Part shown: positions 27,436 through 61,896 of the stretch, one piece after another
Position numbering within the stretch: position 1 is the first letter of the stretch
Layout of the letters: each line of letters starts with the position of its first letter
From: Escherichia coli
GTDB taxonomy: Bacteria; Pseudomonadota; Gammaproteobacteria; Enterobacterales; Enterobacteriaceae
Assembly (NCBI RefSeq): GCF_003334815.1
Contig: NZ_QOWO01000026.1
DNA: 62,123 bases
Direction: 5' to 3' (one strand)
The notes under the pieces: generated by a model
What the model was told of the DNA's origin: nothing
The model's input: the letters and a program-made list of their open reading frames with translations, nothing else
The model's database searches: none
Program-made: the position numbers and the translations under genes

Positions 27436-27451
27436 TGCTCGTGGAGTGCCA
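27436..27451 (-). promoter_or_regulatory. Candidate sigma54 promoter upstream of uacT
   Basis: Minus strand reads TGGCACTCCACGAGCA. GG-N10-GC spacing is correct and the -24 element TGGCAC is perfect, but the -12 element is GAGC rather than TTGC. It lies about 70 nt upstream of the ATG. Confidence 0.35.
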
Positions 27452-27802
27452 GTTTTTGCGAGGAAGGGGAGTTAGAGACAGGAATTGCGGAGGCAATCAC
27501 ATAATCGTGGTTAAACCACGAAAATGAGAATAGAACCTGACAATGGAATTATCTGTAATTTTCTCATATTGATATTTCATTAATCATTCTGGCATGTCGC
27601 ACTCTCGCATTTAATCGTTTTTATCTGGATAGCGCTCTTTTGATCGGCAATGTTGAAATAATGAAAGCGGCATAGATTGAGGGGCAATAATTTGAACTCA
27701 GTCGCAAAATTATAATTAAAACGGTCATGCTACCTAATATATGCCCGTTTATTGCATCGCGAAATTTGAGAAGACATAACTCATTAAATGAAAGGGATGC
27801 AA

Positions 27803-51281: not shown

Positions 51282-52472
51282 TTATTTCACGCGTTCTTGC
51301 GCTTCTTTCAGCAGTTGCTCGAGCAGTGCACCTGGTTTGGCGTATTTACGGGACAGGATCATCGCGGCGATGATATAAGGCTTCCAGCTGGCTTCTTTGT
51401 AGGTAGCGATACGGTATTTTTCGAATACGCCTTCAGTCACTTCACCTTCTTTACAGGATACGCCGCTGATATCAGCTGGCAGGCAGTGCATGTACAGGGC
51501 TTCGCCATCACGGGTCAGTTCCATCATCTCTTCAGTACAATGCCAGTCTTTGTGTTGCGCGTTCTGTGCCAGACACTGTTTTTCCAGTGCTTTTAAGCCT
51601 TCGTGATCGTTCGCACGCAGCAATTCAGTACGCTCTTCCATCACTTTGTAAGGTGCCCATGACTTCGGATAAACGATGTCTGCGTCTTTGAAGGCTTCTT
51701 CCATGCTGGTGACCTGACGGAAGCTACCACCGGAGGCTTTAGCATTGTTTTTCGCCACTTCAACCACATCCGGGATCAGGTCGTAGCCTTCCGGATGGGC
51801 CAGGGTGACATCCATACCGAAGCGAGTCATCAGACCGATGATGCCTTGTGGTACAGAGAGCGGTTTGCCATAGCTTGGAGAGTAGGCCCAGGTCATGGCG
51901 ATTTTTTTACCTTTCAGGTTTTCCAGTGAACCAAAGTGTTCACGTAACCACGCGAGGTCAGCCATTGACTGAGTCGGGTGGTCAATATCGCATTGCAGGT
52001 TCACTAAAGCCGGACGCTGTGGCAGTACACCCTGCTTGTAACCGTCATCAAGTGCAGCGCCAACTTCACGCATATAGGCGTTGCCTGCGCCCAGATACAT
52101 ATCGTCGCGAATACCAATAGCGTCGGCGCAGAAGGAGATCATATTGGCGGTTTCACGCACGGTTTCGCCGTGAGCGATTTGTGATTTGCCTTCGTCGAGA
52201 TCTTGTTGTGCAAGGCCGAGCAGGTTAAGCGCGGAAGCATAAGAGAAGCGGGTACGGGTGGAGTTGTCGCGGAATACGGAAATACCTAATCCACTATTAA
52301 AGACTTTGGTTGAGATGTTTTCAGCACGCAGTGCTTTTAATGCTGCGGCAACGTCCAGTACTTGTTTCAGTTCATCTGGCGTCTGTTCCCACGTTAACAA
52401 AAAATCTTTCTCGTGAAGGTGAGAGGTCAGCGAATTGATATCCTTAATCAGCTCATTAACAGTTTTCATCAT
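51282..52472 (-). CDS. ygeW: Carbamoyltransferase of unknown substrate (ATCase/OTCase family)
   Basis: 396 aa; STRTR carbamoyl-phosphate motif (DNSTRTRFS) and HCLP motif (MHCLPA). Confidence 0.94.
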   Translation of the reverse strand: MMKTVNELIKDINSLTSHLHEKDFLLTWEQTPDELKQVLDVAAALKALRAENISTKVFNSGLGISVFRDNSTRTRFSYASALNLLGLAQQDLDEGKSQIAHGETVRETANMISFCADAIGIRDDMYLGAGNAYMREVGAALDDGYKQGVLPQRPALVNLQCDIDHPTQSMADLAWLREHFGSLENLKGKKIAMTWAYSPSYGKPLSVPQGIIGLMTRFGMDVTLAHPEGYDLIPDVVEVAKNNAKASGGSFRQVTSMEEAFKDADIVYPKSWAPYKVMEERTELLRANDHEGLKALEKQCLAQNAQHKDWHCTEEMMELTRDGEALYMHCLPADISGVSCKEGEVTEGVFEKYRIATYKEASWKPYIIAAMILSRKYAKPGALLEQLLKEAQERVK

Positions 52473-52563
52473 AAAGTCCCGGTAGTGGAATGACAGGCAA
52501 AGTGGTTTATTTCACTGTGACTTGCCAAAGTGATTGGTGTTTTCACAGCTATACCTGGGACTA

Positions 52564-52578
52564 ACAATAAGTGTGCCA
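52564..52578 (-). promoter_or_regulatory. Candidate sigma54 promoter of the ygeW operon
   Basis: Minus strand reads TGGCACACTTATTGT: the -24 element TGGCAC is perfect, spacing is correct, and the -12 element is TTGT instead of TTGC. About 95 nt upstream of the ygeW ATG, next to the sigma54 activator gene ygeV. Confidence 0.5.
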
Positions 52579-52947
52579 GAATTATCCGCGCGGCTGCAAA
52601 AGACTAATTTGACGGATAATGTGTGGGGTTGATCACAAATTGATGCCAGCTTCTGGTTGTTTGTAAAATACGAAAACGTTTGGCTTTTTTTATCGCGTTA
52701 TTTATTTGCTGCTAAGTATCAGAAATAAGATAAAGGGGCAGGCTATCTCTCTTCAGTTTGATAAACTCACCGCCGTAATTCTCATATTGATATAGAAATG
52801 TGATATCTCTTCCATAATTTCATTAGAAAATGATAAAAATCTTATGTTTTTATCAAAGCCAATTTCGCCTGAGTTAATATCATCATGATCTGTGAACCAT
52901 CAACGTCTTCAATGATCGACTTTTAAGTAAGTCTGGAAGGTAAAGCT

Positions 52948-54726
52948 ATGGAGCTTGCTACTACGCAGTCAGTATTGATGCAAATTCAACCGACAATTCA
53001 GCGTTTTGCCAGAATGCTTGCCAGCGTTTTGCAGCTTGAGGTTGAGATCGTTGATGAAAACTTGTGTCGCGTTGCCGGAACGGGCGCGTATGGGAAGTTT
53101 CTTGGTCGCCAGTTGAGCGGCAACTCACGCCTGCTCCGCCACGTCCTGGAAACGAAAACTGAAAAAGTTGTGACACAGTCTCGCTTCGATCCCCTTTGCG
53201 AAGGTTGCGATAGTAAAGAAAATTGCCGCGAAAAAGCATTTCTGGGTACGCCTGTCATTTTACAGGATCGTTGTGTTGGGGTGATAAGTTTGATTGCCGT
53301 TACCCACGAGCAACAAGAGCATATCAGTGATAATTTACGCGAATTTTCTGATTATGTTCGCCATATATCCACCATTTTTGTTTCGAAACTTCTGGAGGAT
53401 CAGGGGCCAGGAGATAACATCAGTAAAATATTTGCGACCATGATCGATAATATGGATCAGGGCGTATTAGTTGTAGATGATGAAAATCGGGTTCAGTTTG
53501 TTAATCAGACTGCCTTAAAAACACTTGGTGTTGTGCAAAATAATATTATTGGGAAACCTATCCGTTTCAGACCATTAACATTTGAGAGTAATTTTACCCA
53601 TGGACATATGCAGCATATTGTTTCATGGGACGATAAAAGTGAATTAATCATTGGTCAATTGCATAACATTCAGGGCCGACAATTATTTTTAATGGCGTTT
53701 CACCAATCGCATACCAGTTTTTCTGTAGCAAATGCACCTGATGAACCGCATATTGAACAATTGGTTGGCGAGTGCCGTGTTATGCGGCAATTAAAACGAC
53801 TCATTAGCCGTATTGCACCCAGCCCATCCAGCGTTATGGTGGTTGGTGAAAGCGGCACGGGTAAAGAAGTCGTCGCCCGTGCAATCCATAAGTTGAGCGG
53901 AAGACGGAATAAACCCTTTATTGCTATCAACTGTGCCGCGATTCCGGAGCAGCTTCTGGAGAGCGAACTGTTCGGTTATGTTAAAGGTGCATTTACTGGC
54001 GCTTCTGCCAACGGTAAAACAGGGTTGATTCAGGCGGCGAATACGGGCACGCTGTTTCTCGATGAAATAGGTGATATGCCATTAATGTTGCAGGCTAAAT
54101 TACTGCGCGCTATTGAGGCACGTGAAATTCTGCCGATTGGTGCCAGTAGCCCAATACAAGTCGACATTCGCATCATTTCTGCAACTAATCAGAATTTGGC
54201 CCAGTTCATTGCCGAAGGTAAATTCCGCGAAGATCTCTTCTACCGACTTAATGTTATCCCGATAACTCTGCCACCGCTGCGTGAACGTCAGGAAGATATT
54301 GAACTATTGGTGCATTACTTTTTACATCTGCATACCCGTCGTCTGGGATCGGTTTATCCTGGCATTGCTCCCGATGTCGTCGAAATATTGCGTAAGCATC
54401 GTTGGCCCGGAAACCTGCGCGAGTTAAGCAATTTGATGGAATATCTGGTTAACGTGGTTCCTTCAGGTGAAGTTATCGACAGCACGCTATTGCCGCCAAA
54501 TCTGCTGAATAATGGCACAACGGAGCAAAGTGATGTAACAGAGGTCAGTGAGGCGCACCTGTCACTCGATGATGCGGGCGGCACGGCGCTGGAGGAGATG
54601 GAAAAGCAAATGATCCGCGAGGCGCTTTCACGTCATAACAGCAAGAAGCAAGTTGCTGATGAACTGGGCATCGGCATTGCTACGCTCTATCGCAAGATTA
54701 AGAAATATGAGTTGTTAAACACATAA
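52948..54726 (+). CDS. ygeV: Sigma54-dependent transcriptional activator (bacterial enhancer-binding protein)
   Basis: 592 aa; AAA+ Walker A GESGTGKE; sigma54-contact GAFTGA motif; C-terminal Fis-type HTH; N-terminal sensory domains. Confidence 0.95.
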   Translation: MELATTQSVLMQIQPTIQRFARMLASVLQLEVEIVDENLCRVAGTGAYGKFLGRQLSGNSRLLRHVLETKTEKVVTQSRFDPLCEGCDSKENCREKAFLGTPVILQDRCVGVISLIAVTHEQQEHISDNLREFSDYVRHISTIFVSKLLEDQGPGDNISKIFATMIDNMDQGVLVVDDENRVQFVNQTALKTLGVVQNNIIGKPIRFRPLTFESNFTHGHMQHIVSWDDKSELIIGQLHNIQGRQLFLMAFHQSHTSFSVANAPDEPHIEQLVGECRVMRQLKRLISRIAPSPSSVMVVGESGTGKEVVARAIHKLSGRRNKPFIAINCAAIPEQLLESELFGYVKGAFTGASANGKTGLIQAANTGTLFLDEIGDMPLMLQAKLLRAIEAREILPIGASSPIQVDIRIISATNQNLAQFIAEGKFREDLFYRLNVIPITLPPLRERQEDIELLVHYFLHLHTRRLGSVYPGIAPDVVEILRKHRWPGNLRELSNLMEYLVNVVPSGEVIDSTLLPPNLLNNGTTEQSDVTEVSEAHLSLDDAGGTALEEMEKQMIREALSRHNSKKQVADELGIGIATLYRKIKKYELLNT

Positions 54727-58389: not shown

Positions 58390-58484
58390 GCATGATTCAC
58401 CCGTAGCGGTTGCTTCCCGCGCTTCCATAGAAATCCCCTCGATTTGAACATTTGGTTCTTATGGCAAAGATTTAGTCTAAGCAG

Positions 58485-58499
58485 GCAAGATTTACGCCA
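58485..58499 (-). promoter_or_regulatory. Candidate sigma54 promoter of xdhABC
   Basis: Minus strand reads TGGCGTAAATCTTGC: TGGC-N7-TTGC with exact GG-N10-GC spacing, about 95 nt upstream of the xdhA ATG. Confidence 0.6.
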
Positions 58500-58842
58500 G
58501 AAACGACGATAAGCGTTAGGGGAGGTAGGAAGTGTGATGACGTTAAAAAAACACAGATATGATACGAAACAGGACTCTGAATAGGGGCAGTGATACGTAT
58601 CAATATGAGTGGCGATAAAATCAATGTGATAAATTGGGATTATTACGCATCAGGATGGGAAATAGGGTAAAAAGTCAGGAAGTTCGATACCTCTACAGCG
58701 AATATTTTGCTGATGATACTTCCCTTTGCCAAATGAAATTAACCTCTTTCTCTATTACCACGTTTTTCCAGAAGCAAGAGATTGGGTATCAAGAGGCTGG
58801 CTGCTATGATAAGGCGTCTTGTTTTTTAAGCGAGGAAAGATT

Positions 58843-59864: not shown

Positions 59865-61511
59865 ATGATTCAGCTATCCAGCAGTCACAAACTTCCAGCC
59901 GTCTCCTATCTCTACCAGCGTAACGGCGTCTACTACTTCCGTCTTCGGGTCAGACAATCAAACAATGATAGAATGACCTCAATATCATTACGGACCAAGG
60001 ATAGACGCACCGCTATGGCTCACTCAAGGCACATCAAGGCAGCACTCAAGGCAATACACGCAGACAGACCCAACGCTACCTATGAGGAAATGAGGGAGCA
60101 CCTTAAGGACATCGCTGAGTGTGAACTGTCTATGGGCCGTTCAGATCTCTTTGAGCCTGACATGAGGGATATCTACCGGGACCAATACGGAGAACTTGGT
60201 GAGAGCCTTACCGATGCTCTGGCTAGTGAGCCGCTAAGTATTGACCAGCATCGTTACATCAATGAGGCCCTGAAGGTGCTAAAAGCCTGCATGAGGCGTA
60301 TCGAAGCGGGAGACAGTCAGCCTCTGATAGATTACGTCGATCATTTTAATGATATTGATAGGCAAGATAGCCAAGTAGCCTCTGTGTCCCTATCTGTTAA
60401 TGCTCCAGAAGTAAAACCAGAAGTAAAACCAGAAGTAAAACTAGAAGTAAAACCAGAAGTTACGCCTAGCATTACCATAGCGAGCCTCTTTGAGCAATAC
60501 GAAGCGGAGAATTATCAGAACTGGAAGCCTGCAACCTTAAGGGAAAACAAGGCGTCACACGCTGCGTTAATCGAAATATTCGACCATCTGGGTCTCAATG
60601 CAGACGCTAACAGGGCTGACATGCTTAAGGTCCGTGATGTGCTCCAGCAGTTACCTAGGAACCGTAAGCAGCGCTTCAAGGATGCCCCACTTGCTGACCT
60701 GTTGAGCCGTGAAGATAAGACAGATTGTCTGGATGTCGTTACCATCAACAACAAGTATCTTATTAAGATGGCTGCTGTCTTTAGGTGGGCTGTGCGCAAT
60801 GACTTGATTAAAAAGAACATGACTGAGGGTCTGGAGCTTAAAGTCCCTCAGCGTAAAGCCTCAGGGGCCCGTAACGCCTTCTCTACGGAGCAGGTGGGGC
60901 AACTACTGGTCGCAGCTAAGGCATACTCTCAGAAGACCTCTGGTAAGCCCTACCACTATTACGTTACGGCTTTGGCTGCTATCACTGGGGCGAGACTCAA
61001 TGAAATAGCCCAACTACAGGTCAAAGACGTCAGGACCACTGAGGCGGGAACCGTTTATATTCATATCAATGAAGACGATAGTAGTCTACCCGGTAAGAGC
61101 ATCAAGAACGCTCATAGTGACCGCTGTGTGCCTCTGGTCGATGGGGCCTATGGTTTTATATTGGCTGACTTTATGAGGTTGGTTGAGACCCGTAGAGGCG
61201 CTGATGGTGATGACGCTATGGTGTTCGATGGTCTTCGCCTCATGAAGAACGGTTACGGTGAGCAGGTGAGTAAATGGTTTAATCGGACGTTGTTGCCTAA
61301 AGTCCTCGCAGATCGTAGCGGCTTAGCGTTTCACTCGTTTAGACATACAGTTGCGACCCAGTTAAAACAACATGGGGTCGAGTTGGCGTATGCACAGGCG
61401 ATCATGGGGCATAGTTCAGGGTCTATTACTTACGACCGTTATGCTAAAGAGGTTGAGGTTGATAGGCTGGTCAATGTGATGGCTGATGTTTATAAGGAGA
61501 TTGTGGGGTAA
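59865..61511 (+). CDS. Tyrosine recombinase / phage-type integrase (548 aa)
   Basis: C-terminal catalytic signature: GARLNEIAQL (Arg), HSFRHTVATQL (His-x-x-Arg), GHSSGSITYDRY (His...Tyr nucleophile). N-terminal YLYQRNGVYYFRLRV arm-type domain. Adjacent to the tRNA. Confidence 0.9.
   Translation: MIQLSSSHKLPAVSYLYQRNGVYYFRLRVRQSNNDRMTSISLRTKDRRTAMAHSRHIKAALKAIHADRPNATYEEMREHLKDIAECELSMGRSDLFEPDMRDIYRDQYGELGESLTDALASEPLSIDQHRYINEALKVLKACMRRIEAGDSQPLIDYVDHFNDIDRQDSQVASVSLSVNAPEVKPEVKPEVKLEVKPEVTPSITIASLFEQYEAENYQNWKPATLRENKASHAALIEIFDHLGLNADANRADMLKVRDVLQQLPRNRKQRFKDAPLADLLSREDKTDCLDVVTINNKYLIKMAAVFRWAVRNDLIKKNMTEGLELKVPQRKASGARNAFSTEQVGQLLVAAKAYSQKTSGKPYHYYVTALAAITGARLNEIAQLQVKDVRTTEAGTVYIHINEDDSSLPGKSIKNAHSDRCVPLVDGAYGFILADFMRLVETRRGADGDDAMVFDGLRLMKNGYGEQVSKWFNRTLLPKVLADRSGLAFHSFRHTVATQLKQHGVELAYAQAIMGHSSGSITYDRYAKEVEVDRLVNVMADVYKEIVG
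60380..60399 (+). other. 20-nt match to the T7 terminal-repeat end plus the concatemer-junction class II pause signal (CTCTGTGTCCCT|ATCTGTTA)
   Basis: Compared with my recollection of the T7 left end (...GAGTGTCTCTCTGTGTCCCTATCTGTTACAGTCTCC...). Contains the conserved ATCTGTT heptamer at 60392-60398. Lies in frame inside the integrase linker region. Confidence 0.55.
60405..60464 (+). repeat. In-frame 12-bp tandem repeat x5 encoding PEVK-PEVK-PEVK-LEVK-PEVT
   Basis: ccagaagtaaaa x3, ctagaagtaaaa, ccagaagttacg read directly. Confidence 0.95.
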
Positions 61512-61792: not shown

Positions 61793-61860
61793 AGGGACAC
61801 AAAAAGTTTTCTCTCTTTCTCTCTCTTCTAGGACACTTGCTACTACTACTACAGGTAGCT

Positions 61861-61896
61861 CTAACTCTAACTCTAACTCTAACTCTAACCGTAACT
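61861..61896 (+). repeat. Hexanucleotide microsatellite (CTAACT)4 plus two degenerate units
   Basis: ctaact x4, then ctaacc and gtaact, read directly immediately after the 138-bp repeats. Confidence 0.95.

Follow-up and report, generated by a model that had tools for sequence, protein, structure and literature searches.

Classical upstream activator sequences (UAS) of enhancer-binding proteins, such as those of NtrC at glnAp2, NifA (TGT-N10-ACA) and PspF at pspA/pspF, are dyads situated 100–250 bp upstream of a -24/-12 promoter and paired two or three helical turns apart, from which activation is presumed to proceed via DNA looping and ATP hydrolysis. A dyad of this kind was found in a 62,123-nucleotide stretch of the Escherichia coli contig NZ_QOWO01000026.1 (the window), which represents the E. 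coli xdhA–uacT cluster for purine and uric-acid catabolism. The dyad is located in the spacer between the divergent genes ygeW and ygeV, and sequence comparison makes it probable that it is the docking site (UAS) of the regulator YgeV for the sigma-54 promoters of anaerobic purine and uric-acid genes. The divergent layout of ygeV resembles that of pspF and pspA, where the UAS overlaps the promoter of the regulator, resulting in autorepression. The E. coli dyad differs from the classical UAS in its recognition sequence, which has TCA-N3-TGA arms, and in the CRP-like site found at ygeW in the position that IHF usually occupies at sigma-54 promoters. YgeV differs from the classical activators in its PAS-type sensory domain, and we know of no cognate kinase for it.

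The closest described system is that of the clostridial activator DioR. Nie, Dong & Yang (2019, BMC Genomics 20:565) predicted by comparative genomics a UAS motif TTATCA-N3-TGATAA / TTCTCg-N3-TGAgAA for DioR, typically located 100–250 bp from the promoter, and a regulon consisting of dpaL (ygeX), ygeW-ygfK-ssnA-ygeY, yqeB, xdhABC, and pbuX. The E. coli dyad, likewise predicted from sequence, shares the form TT[A/C]TCA-N3-TGA[T/G]AA, and the C. difficile site AATTCTCGTATTGATAAAA was nearly equal to the E. coli site AATTCTCATATTGATATAG. Both regulators contain a helix-turn-helix (HTH) of the Fis type and a sigma-54 AAA+ domain, with 35–40% identity over the full length; this comparison was made with full-length Firmicutes homologues that adjoin ygeX, xdhABC, or xanthine permease genes rather than with the named DioR proteins (CBO2889, CD3186). 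The targets overlap in ygeW, ygeX/dpaL, ygeY, ygfK, ssnA, yqeB, xdhABC, and purine permeases. In both systems the sites occur 100–250 bp upstream of sigma-54 promoters, often in several copies; at xdhA, uacT, ygfK, and ygeW the dyad centres of E. coli are 106–210 bp upstream of -24, and thus within the typical range. The differences concern the host (E. coli and other Gammaproteobacteria instead of Clostridiales), the E. coli promoters that deviate from the sigma-54 consensus (TTGT at -12 in ygeW, a poor -24 in ygfT, AG for GG in yqeC), the yqeC site, which is placed downstream of its promoter, and the xdhA sites, which lack the outer TT/AA and score below the clostridial training sites. The dyad appears to belong to the DioR-type motif family, while the assignment to YgeV, the map of five promoters, and the conservation in Gammaproteobacteria appear to be new.

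A search with the 801 bases around the dyad returned matches in over 5,100 complete genomes of E. coli, in which the region was annotated as ygeW and ygeV, and the ygeW/ygeV spacer did not differ from that of a strain derived from MG1655. The K-12 annotation supplied the order of the genes in window coordinates (Table 1). A preliminary description made from the DNA alone had placed a shared 12-mer at 52781–52792 and in the xdhA region. Exact-sequence location confirmed this placement, with CTCATATTGATA at 52781–52792 on the plus strand and at 58598–58609 on the minus strand, and revealed a third exact copy at 27563–27574 (plus strand) in the divergent uacT/ygfT spacer. All three copies fall in spacers of one regulon. 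The 12-mer forms the core of a 15-bp dyad, TTCTCA-TAT-TGATAT, the centre of which lies 210 bp upstream of the ygeW -24 G and at approximately -234 from the inferred start. A second dyad was found 29 bp from the main dyad, and its conserved form across relatives was CA-N3-TGATA. The dyads with TCA-N3-TGA arms at xdhA, uacT, ygfK, and ygeW fall within the range of 80–250 bp upstream of a sigma-54 promoter that marks a UAS, the exception in the cluster being the downstream yqeC site. The threefold occurrence of a 12-mer was rejected as significant in itself, as about 10 unrelated 12-mers do likewise in the window and 98 of 100 Markov simulations yielded one. Its distribution was informative: CTCATATTGATA was the sole 12-mer present in at least three of the 41 intergenic regions, a result reached in 8 of 2000 null simulations.

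A weight matrix was built exclusively from the 22 clostridial sites of Nie et al., the lowest training score being 13.5 bits, and applied to the 62-kb window. Exactly four matches reached at least 13.5 bits, at 52779 (18.7 bits), 27561 (18.7 bits), 42931 (21.8–22.2 bits), and 44321 (18.4 bits). All four were inside the cluster, each near a sigma-54 site mapped by chromatin immunoprecipitation (ChIP), namely those of ygeW, ygfK, ygfT/uacT, and yqeB. The null expectation was a mean of 0.77 matches, and four matches of at least 18 bits occurred in none of 300 simulations. The xdhA copy of the 12-mer (2.7 bits), the second xdhA dyad (10.4–10.7 bits), and the second ygeW dyad (7.8 bits) remained below 13.5 bits.

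The same motif was reached from the homologues of YgeV. A protein search with E. coli YgeV gave at least 120 matches, and all of those listed were near-identical E. coli proteins. A contig search with full-length YgeV mostly retrieved generic sigma-54 activators through an FLDEIGDM-type peptide, and six loci were useful. Full-length homologues found beside ygeX, xdhABC, and xanthine permease genes in Firmicutes were 33–40% identical to YgeV. In four Firmicutes loci, full-length YgeV homologues with 35–40% identity adjoined homologues of ygeX, xdhABC, or xanthine permease, and these loci carried canonical sigma-54 promoters with two to three TATCA-N3-TGATA dyads 90–250 bp upstream; one locus had its dyads exactly 21 bp apart. 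E. coli YgeV shares the DNA-binding helix of its HTH, LGIGIATLYRKI, with the homologue from Photobacterium and with two of those from Firmicutes. Two independent routes, the loci of YgeV homologues and the literature, thus led to the same motif.

Conservation of the spacer was evaluated by a scan of metagenome contigs for which the Photobacterium YgeV homologue provided the N-terminal domain as query, and which yielded 54 loci. The divergent ygeW/ygeV layout was present in all 50 loci with a placeable full-length ygeW match. These 50 loci provided 26 distinct spacers, which were aligned together with the Photobacterium locus and E. coli to give a 28-spacer alignment; the N-terminal domain of YgeV in the relatives was 48–89% identical to that of E. 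coli. A comparative alignment within E. coli clades had been proposed in the preliminary description as a check; the present, wider alignment revealed the main dyad, the second dyad, and the promoter as the main conserved islands of the spacer. The main dyad, conserved as TT[C/A]TCA-N3-TGATA, was present in 28/28 spacers with scores of 10.5–23.5 bits. Its distance to the -24 G was 209–215 bp in most enteric relatives, 201–230 bp in four others, and 161–184 bp in a Photobacterium-like group. In Photobacterium pectinilyticum, where YgeV and YgeW are 57% and 84% identical to the E. coli proteins and the spacer is otherwise unalignable, ATCATATTGATAT was followed 5 bp on by TGTGA, exactly the E. 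coli arrangement, and TGGCACAGTTATTGAT was found on the ygeW strand. Eight diverse E. coli showed no variation in the main dyad or in the 45 bp that contain it, and a cluster of polymorphisms flanks this stretch; taken alone, this is weak evidence. An Rfam search of the spacer gave no match.

A second protein search, started from an 80%-identical orthologue, added Atlantibacter, Pluralibacter, Citrobacter amalonaticus, Trabulsiella, Pseudocitrobacter, and one Salmonella enterica isolate, referred to here as the six named genera. All six carried the identical 15-mer TTCTCATATTGATAT at 210–211 bp from the -24 element and the second dyad at 181–182 bp, and four of them also had a CRP-like site, at 54–55 bp. 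The dyad was accordingly found at a near-fixed promoter distance in 33 other gammaproteobacterial spacers (27 distinct spacers and the six named genera), and in these as well as in the Firmicutes loci it adjoined homologues of ygeV. The Salmonella result runs against the assumption of the preliminary description that Salmonella lacks the cluster, since one assembly labelled Salmonella enterica (GCA_016412205.1) contained the cluster in full from ygfJ to xdhA, the same dyads included. The proposal of the preliminary description that the 12-mer is an upstream activator site of an enhancer-binding protein with TGATA/TATCA-type half-sites gained strong comparative backing from the clostridial motif, the Firmicutes loci, and the spacer alignments.

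The -24 element ahead of ygeW had been located at 52564–52578 on the minus strand, and TGGCACACTTATTGT was found there. It belongs to a real promoter that is already known from ChIP sequencing (ChIP-seq) and genomic systematic evolution of ligands by exponential enrichment (gSELEX). In the sigma-54 ChIP-seq data, the sequence CTGGCACACTTATTGTT upstream of ygeW is entered as OS30, its fold-above-threshold score being 3 (Bonocora et al. 2015, PMC4591121), and an RpoN gSELEX peak was reported in the ygeV/ygeW spacer at 53–55% (Shimada et al. 2021, PMC8743547). The -24 element is canonical, with GG in TGGCAC (52573–52578, minus strand), and TGGCA[C/T] was kept in 34/34 orthologous ygeW spacers (28 aligned and six named genera), the promoter form across them being TGGCA[C/T]-N5-TTG[T/A/G]. 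The consensus GC at -12 (TTGCW, ten bases from GG) was absent from ygeW, where TTGT retains the G and replaces C with T. Across the 34 orthologous promoters the -12 element (52563–52567) was TTGT, TTGA, or TTGG and in none TTGC, whereas TTGC is present at the other promoters of the cluster, xdhA, ygfK, and ygfT. Avoidance of the -12 C at ygeW thus appears, from these alignments, to be conserved. The promoter lacks one defining sigma-54 feature and is nonetheless occupied by sigma-54 in vivo. The -24/-12 pattern was not enriched in the window: with one mismatch allowed, 7 sites matched where 6.6 were expected.

The ygeW element (OS30) and the sites of xdhA, ygfK, ygfT, and the yqeC interior are all contained in the published sigma-54 set (Bonocora et al. 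2015; Shimada et al. 2021), and the last four could also be located in the window, the xdhA site being given as CTGGCGTAAATCTTGCC and the ygfK site as GTGGTGCGATTGTTGCT (Bonocora et al. 2015, PMC4591121). These studies mapped sigma-54 alone and assigned no activator or UAS, and no obvious regulator was noted for the yqeB promoter. The dyad in the uacT/ygfT spacer lies 119 bp upstream of a candidate uacT sigma-54 site, and uacT is a member of the published YgeV iModulon. The dyad inside yqeC lies approximately 235 bp downstream of the intragenic yqeB promoter. In seven genera its arms were invariant and its 3-bp spacer was free, while the surrounding codons diverged, and no second sigma-54 promoter was found between this dyad and the yqeB start. 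The yqeC dyad looks like a downstream enhancer for the yqeB promoter.

At xdhA, comparison of seven genera demonstrated the retention of two dyads, separated by approximately 22 bp, whose arms are invariant and whose spacers are free, together with a T-run, a TCACA block, and the sigma-54 promoter. This cross-genus conservation indicates that the xdhA copy of the 12-mer is a real site, although its score is only 2.7 bits owing to the missing outer TT/AA. The identity of its three spacer bases to those of the other E. coli copies is incidental. The preliminary description also stated that a 9-mer follows the 12-mer in both regions. Both words were present, the 9-mer AATGTGATA at 52797–52805 and 58623–58631, both on the plus strand; at xdhA, however, the two words occupy opposite strands, the 12-mer the minus and the 9-mer the plus strand, which gives them another relative orientation than at ygeW. 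As a second shared element the 9-mer did not hold up, and it was rejected on two grounds. Its count was not above chance (2 copies against 0.71 expected, equalled in 14 of 100 shuffles), and its conserved parts differ between the loci. At xdhA it is the TATCA arm plus spacer of the second dyad, whose TATCA...TGA arms were conserved in seven genera, the arm being the only part of the 9-mer kept there, whereas at ygeW the conserved part is TGTGA and not a dyad arm. The 9-mer therefore represents two different elements, and its sharing is a coincidence.

A mechanism can be outlined on the model of the sigma-54 paradigm. Sigma-54 RNA polymerase would be held as a closed complex at the ygeW promoter, which probably serves the ygeW-ygeX-ygeY-hyuA-yqeA operon, and YgeV dimers would occupy the dyads at approximately -205 and -234. 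In response to a signal perhaps tied to urate or purines under anaerobiosis, activated YgeV would assemble into an ATPase ring, would contact the promoter by DNA looping, possibly aided by the CRP-like site at approximately -77, and would use ATP to open the closed complex. YgeV as the binder, looping, the role of CRP, and autoregulation of ygeV are all inferred here, and they are attached to sequences, positions, and conservation as described above and to sigma-54 occupancy, operon co-expression, and lower ygfT expression in a ygeV mutant as reported. The presence of the same dyad at xdhABC, ygfK-ssnA-ygfM-xdhD, ygfT, perhaps uacT, and yqeB would outline a YgeV regulon. In PRECISE-1K the YgeV iModulon contains precisely the dyad-bearing operons, and that paper also cites reduced ygfT expression in a ygeV mutant.

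Several points weigh against YgeV as the binder. No YgeV footprint, electrophoretic mobility shift assay, ChIP, or binding site was found in the searchable literature, and the DioR motif of Clostridiales is itself known from computational prediction. At xdhA, the copy of the 12-mer and its partner score 2.7 and 10.4 bits, both under the 13.5-bit training minimum, and the ygeW dyads are farther from their promoter (approximately 180–210 bp) than the xdhA dyads. The placement of the yqeC dyad, downstream of its promoter, would be unusual in a UAS. The published sigma-54 ChIP-seq list contains no uacT site. No dyad was present upstream of K-12 ybiY, another gene of the YgeV iModulon, and the regulation of ybiY is therefore probably indirect. 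Finally, CRP gSELEX peaks occur in two of the same spacers, ygeV/ygeW and ygfT/ygfU, so another protein may bind nearby.

One alternative would read the 12-mer as a sigma-70 promoter or operator of ygeV, with TTGATA as the -35 and a conserved CATAAT (52812–52817) as the -10 hexamer, retained for ygeV expression or autorepression. The main dyad reads toward ygeV, lies approximately 155 bp upstream of its start, and overlaps the -35-like TTGATA, which matches TTGACA at 5/6 positions, and a CATAWT hexamer downstream is conserved in enteric relatives. The insertion of IS1 just downstream (52824–52832) in some E. coli strains was also counted in favour of this reading. The two hexamers would, however, be separated by 19 bp, and the sigma-70 consensus scan, which gave no more sites than its shuffles, did not call the pair. 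No sigma-54 promoter for ygeV was seen by eye on the plus strand of 52793–52947, where the only GG/GC pair was wrongly spaced. Moreover, the dyad recurs at xdhA, ygfK, and uacT/ygfT and within yqeC, none of which has a divergent regulator gene, and upstream of the Firmicutes sigma-54 promoters. As a full account of the dyad this explanation is unlikely. A promoter function may coexist with the role as UAS in the form of autoregulation, which the geometry of the dyad makes possible, but it cannot replace it.

Binding of a global regulator (FNR at TTGAT-N4-ATCAA, CRP, or Fur) instead of YgeV, serving anaerobic or catabolite control, was judged very unlikely. The pathway is anaerobic and glucose-repressed, the CRP gSELEX peaks mentioned above are in the relevant spacers, and the xdhA copy TTGATacgtATCAc agrees with 9/10 FNR consensus positions. 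The other two copies of the 12-mer, however, lack the FNR-like second half, and even at xdhA the match is lost in other genera, where TTGAT becomes TATGAT; an FNR site at the 12-mer was thus rejected as fitting the E. coli xdhA copy only. Better and separate CRP-type sites are available at 52622–52637 and at the TGTGA of 58533. A conserved TCA-N3-TGA with a free spacer does not fit the consensus of FNR, CRP, or Fur, and the motif travels with ygeV homologues into the Firmicutes. By eye, IHF was rejected as TATCAA-TATG-AGn lacks the TTR of its consensus, and Fur was rejected as the arms of the ygfK palindrome are in reverse order compared to the Fur box. The remaining idea, that the repeat is a functionless coincidence of AT-rich intergenic DNA, could draw on the frequency of triple 12-mers in the window and the chance-level 9-mer, and is hardly credible given the exclusive intergenic sharing of the 12-mer and the recovery of the dyad by an independently trained clostridial matrix, being effectively refuted by a fixed promoter distance across many genera whose flanks diverge.

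A broader proposal can also be made, although it is tentative and somewhat doubtful at present. YgeV/DioR and the TCA-N3-TGA operator may be one pair kept from Firmicutes to Gammaproteobacteria, which would have moved with the selenium-dependent purine and urate genes. The enteric features would then be the downstream yqeC enhancer at approximately 235 bp, the avoidance of the -12 C at ygeW, and the CRP-type sites in the IHF position.

YgeV (IsrR) has been a regulator without a defined DNA target; it was termed an orphan regulator (PMC9426417), the IsrR paper left its direct targets open, and no description of this docking site for E. coli was found in the searchable literature. The cluster is linked to anaerobic removal of uric acid by gut bacteria and to gout-oriented probiotic engineering, and YgeV is also tied to virulence regulation in enterohaemorrhagic E. 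coli and Citrobacter rodentium. A proposed 15-bp operator and a map of five promoters make the activating signal of YgeV and the activator of the intragenic yqeB promoter testable. If direct, the reported effect of YgeV on the virulence genes belonging to the locus of enterocyte effacement would require a dyad and a sigma-54 promoter there. For engineers rewiring the ygeV-ygeW spacer, the map indicates which bases should be kept or removed.

Table 1. Features of the window discussed in the text (strand: +, plus; -, minus;., not assigned to one strand).
Feature	Position	Strand	Basis or remarks
Main YgeV-type candidate upstream activator dyad TTCTCA-TAT-TGATAT	52779..52793	.	Matrix score, conservation
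Second, weaker dyad TCTTCA-GTT-TGATAA	52750..52764	.	7.8 bits; columns conserved in 28 spacers
ygeW sigma-54 promoter TGGCAC-ACTTA-TTGTT	52563..52578	-	ChIP-seq OS30, gSELEX peak, conservation
CRP-like site TGTGG-ggttga-TCACA	52622..52637	.	9/10 consensus positions; approximately -77.5, between dyads and promoter
9-mer region TGTGA-tatctc-TTCCA	52797..52814	+	8/10 CRP positions; conserved: TGTGA, N6, nnnCA
xdhA dyad 1 aCTCA-TAT-TGATAc (second copy of the 12-mer)	58596..58610	-	Centre approximately -130; arms conserved, spacer free, 7 genera
xdhA dyad 2 TTATCA-CAT-TGATTT	58618..58632	-	Contains reverse complement of the 9-mer; 22 bp from dyad 1
xdhA sigma-54 promoter TGGCGTAAATCTTGCC	58484..58499	-	ChIP-seq OS29; invariant in 7 genera
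Third dyad copy TTCTCATATTGATAT	27561..27575	.	uacT/ygfT spacer; approximately 175 bp upstream of ygfT sigma-54 site
ygfT sigma-54 site TATGCCCGTTTATTGCA	27740..27756	+	ChIP-seq (Bonocora et al. 2015, PMC4591121)
Candidate uacT sigma-54 promoter TGGCACTCCACGAGCA	27436..27451	-	64 bp upstream of uacT start; unconfirmed
ygfK dyad TTATCA-TTA-TGATAA	42931..42945	.	Best window match; 178 bp upstream of ygfK -24
ygfK sigma-54 promoter TGGTGCGATTGTTGCT	42747..42762	-	ChIP-seq OS31
yqeC-internal dyad TTCTCA-ATG-TGAGAA	44321..44335	.	18.4 bits; 160 bp upstream of yqeB start
Intragenic yqeB sigma-54 promoter in yqeC	44078..44094	+	Experimentally validated, IS34 (Bonocora et al. 2015); invariant block, 7 genera
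ygeV (isrR)	52948..54726	+	PAS / sigma-54 AAA+ / HTH_8 enhancer-binding protein (Pfam); presumed dyad binder
ygeW	51282..52472	-	First gene of operon driven by the 52563..52578 promoter
ygeW-ygeX-ygeY-hyuA-yqeA	from 52472	-	K-12 annotation
xdhA, xdhB, xdhC	58389 down to 54766	-	K-12 annotation
yqeC-yqeB		+	K-12 annotation
ygfJ and ygfK-ssnA-ygfM-xdhD		-	K-12 annotation
xanQ, guaD, ghxQ, ygfS, ygfT	from 27803	+	K-12 annotation
uacT	from 27367	-	K-12 annotation

The spacers contained further elements. The CRP-like site at 52622–52637 was invariant in E. coli and was kept as TGyGA-N6-TCACr in enteric relatives only. The gSELEX peaks of CRP were reported for the ygeV/ygeW and ygfT/ygfU spacers, with no position given within the former, and a 2025 engineering paper (PMC12507026) mentions a 'native Crp-binding site' in the ygeV-ygeW spacer together with repression by glucose. 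These reports fit a conserved CRP-type site between enhancer and promoter, which by inference would bend the DNA. At xdhA a conserved TGTGA-tgacgt-TAAAA was observed at 58533–58548, approximately -67, also between the dyads and the promoter. The TGTGA located 5 bp after the main ygeW dyad was conserved in 26/28 spacers, including that of Photobacterium, and the region 52797–52814 is not a YgeV dyad but may form part of the ygeV promoter or a weak half-site of the CRP type. Conserved TATCAA (52852–52857) and TATCAT (52878–52889) blocks were present 60–95 bp upstream of the ygeV start; one of them forms a perfect core dyad, ATCATCATGAT, with only 6 bits in the matrix. These blocks might belong to the ygeV promoter or bind YgeV with low affinity. 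The sequence ACGAAAACGTTTGGCT at 52671–52686, which matches the PurR operator palindrome at 13/16 positions, showed no conservation beyond the closest relatives, those in which the N-terminal domain of YgeV is at least 80% identical.

Some E. coli strains, for example EC24, CFS3273, and G5, have IS1 inserted at 52824–52832, where it separates the main dyad from ygeV and has duplicated 9 bp of the target. The insertion leaves the layout from enhancer to ygeW intact and cuts ygeV off from its upstream region. Elsewhere in the window, k-mer counting revealed short tandem repeats bearing no relation to the dyads at 60405–60460 and 61859–61882, the repeated units being the 12-bp CCAGAAGTAAAA, present three to four times, and CTCTAA, present four times.

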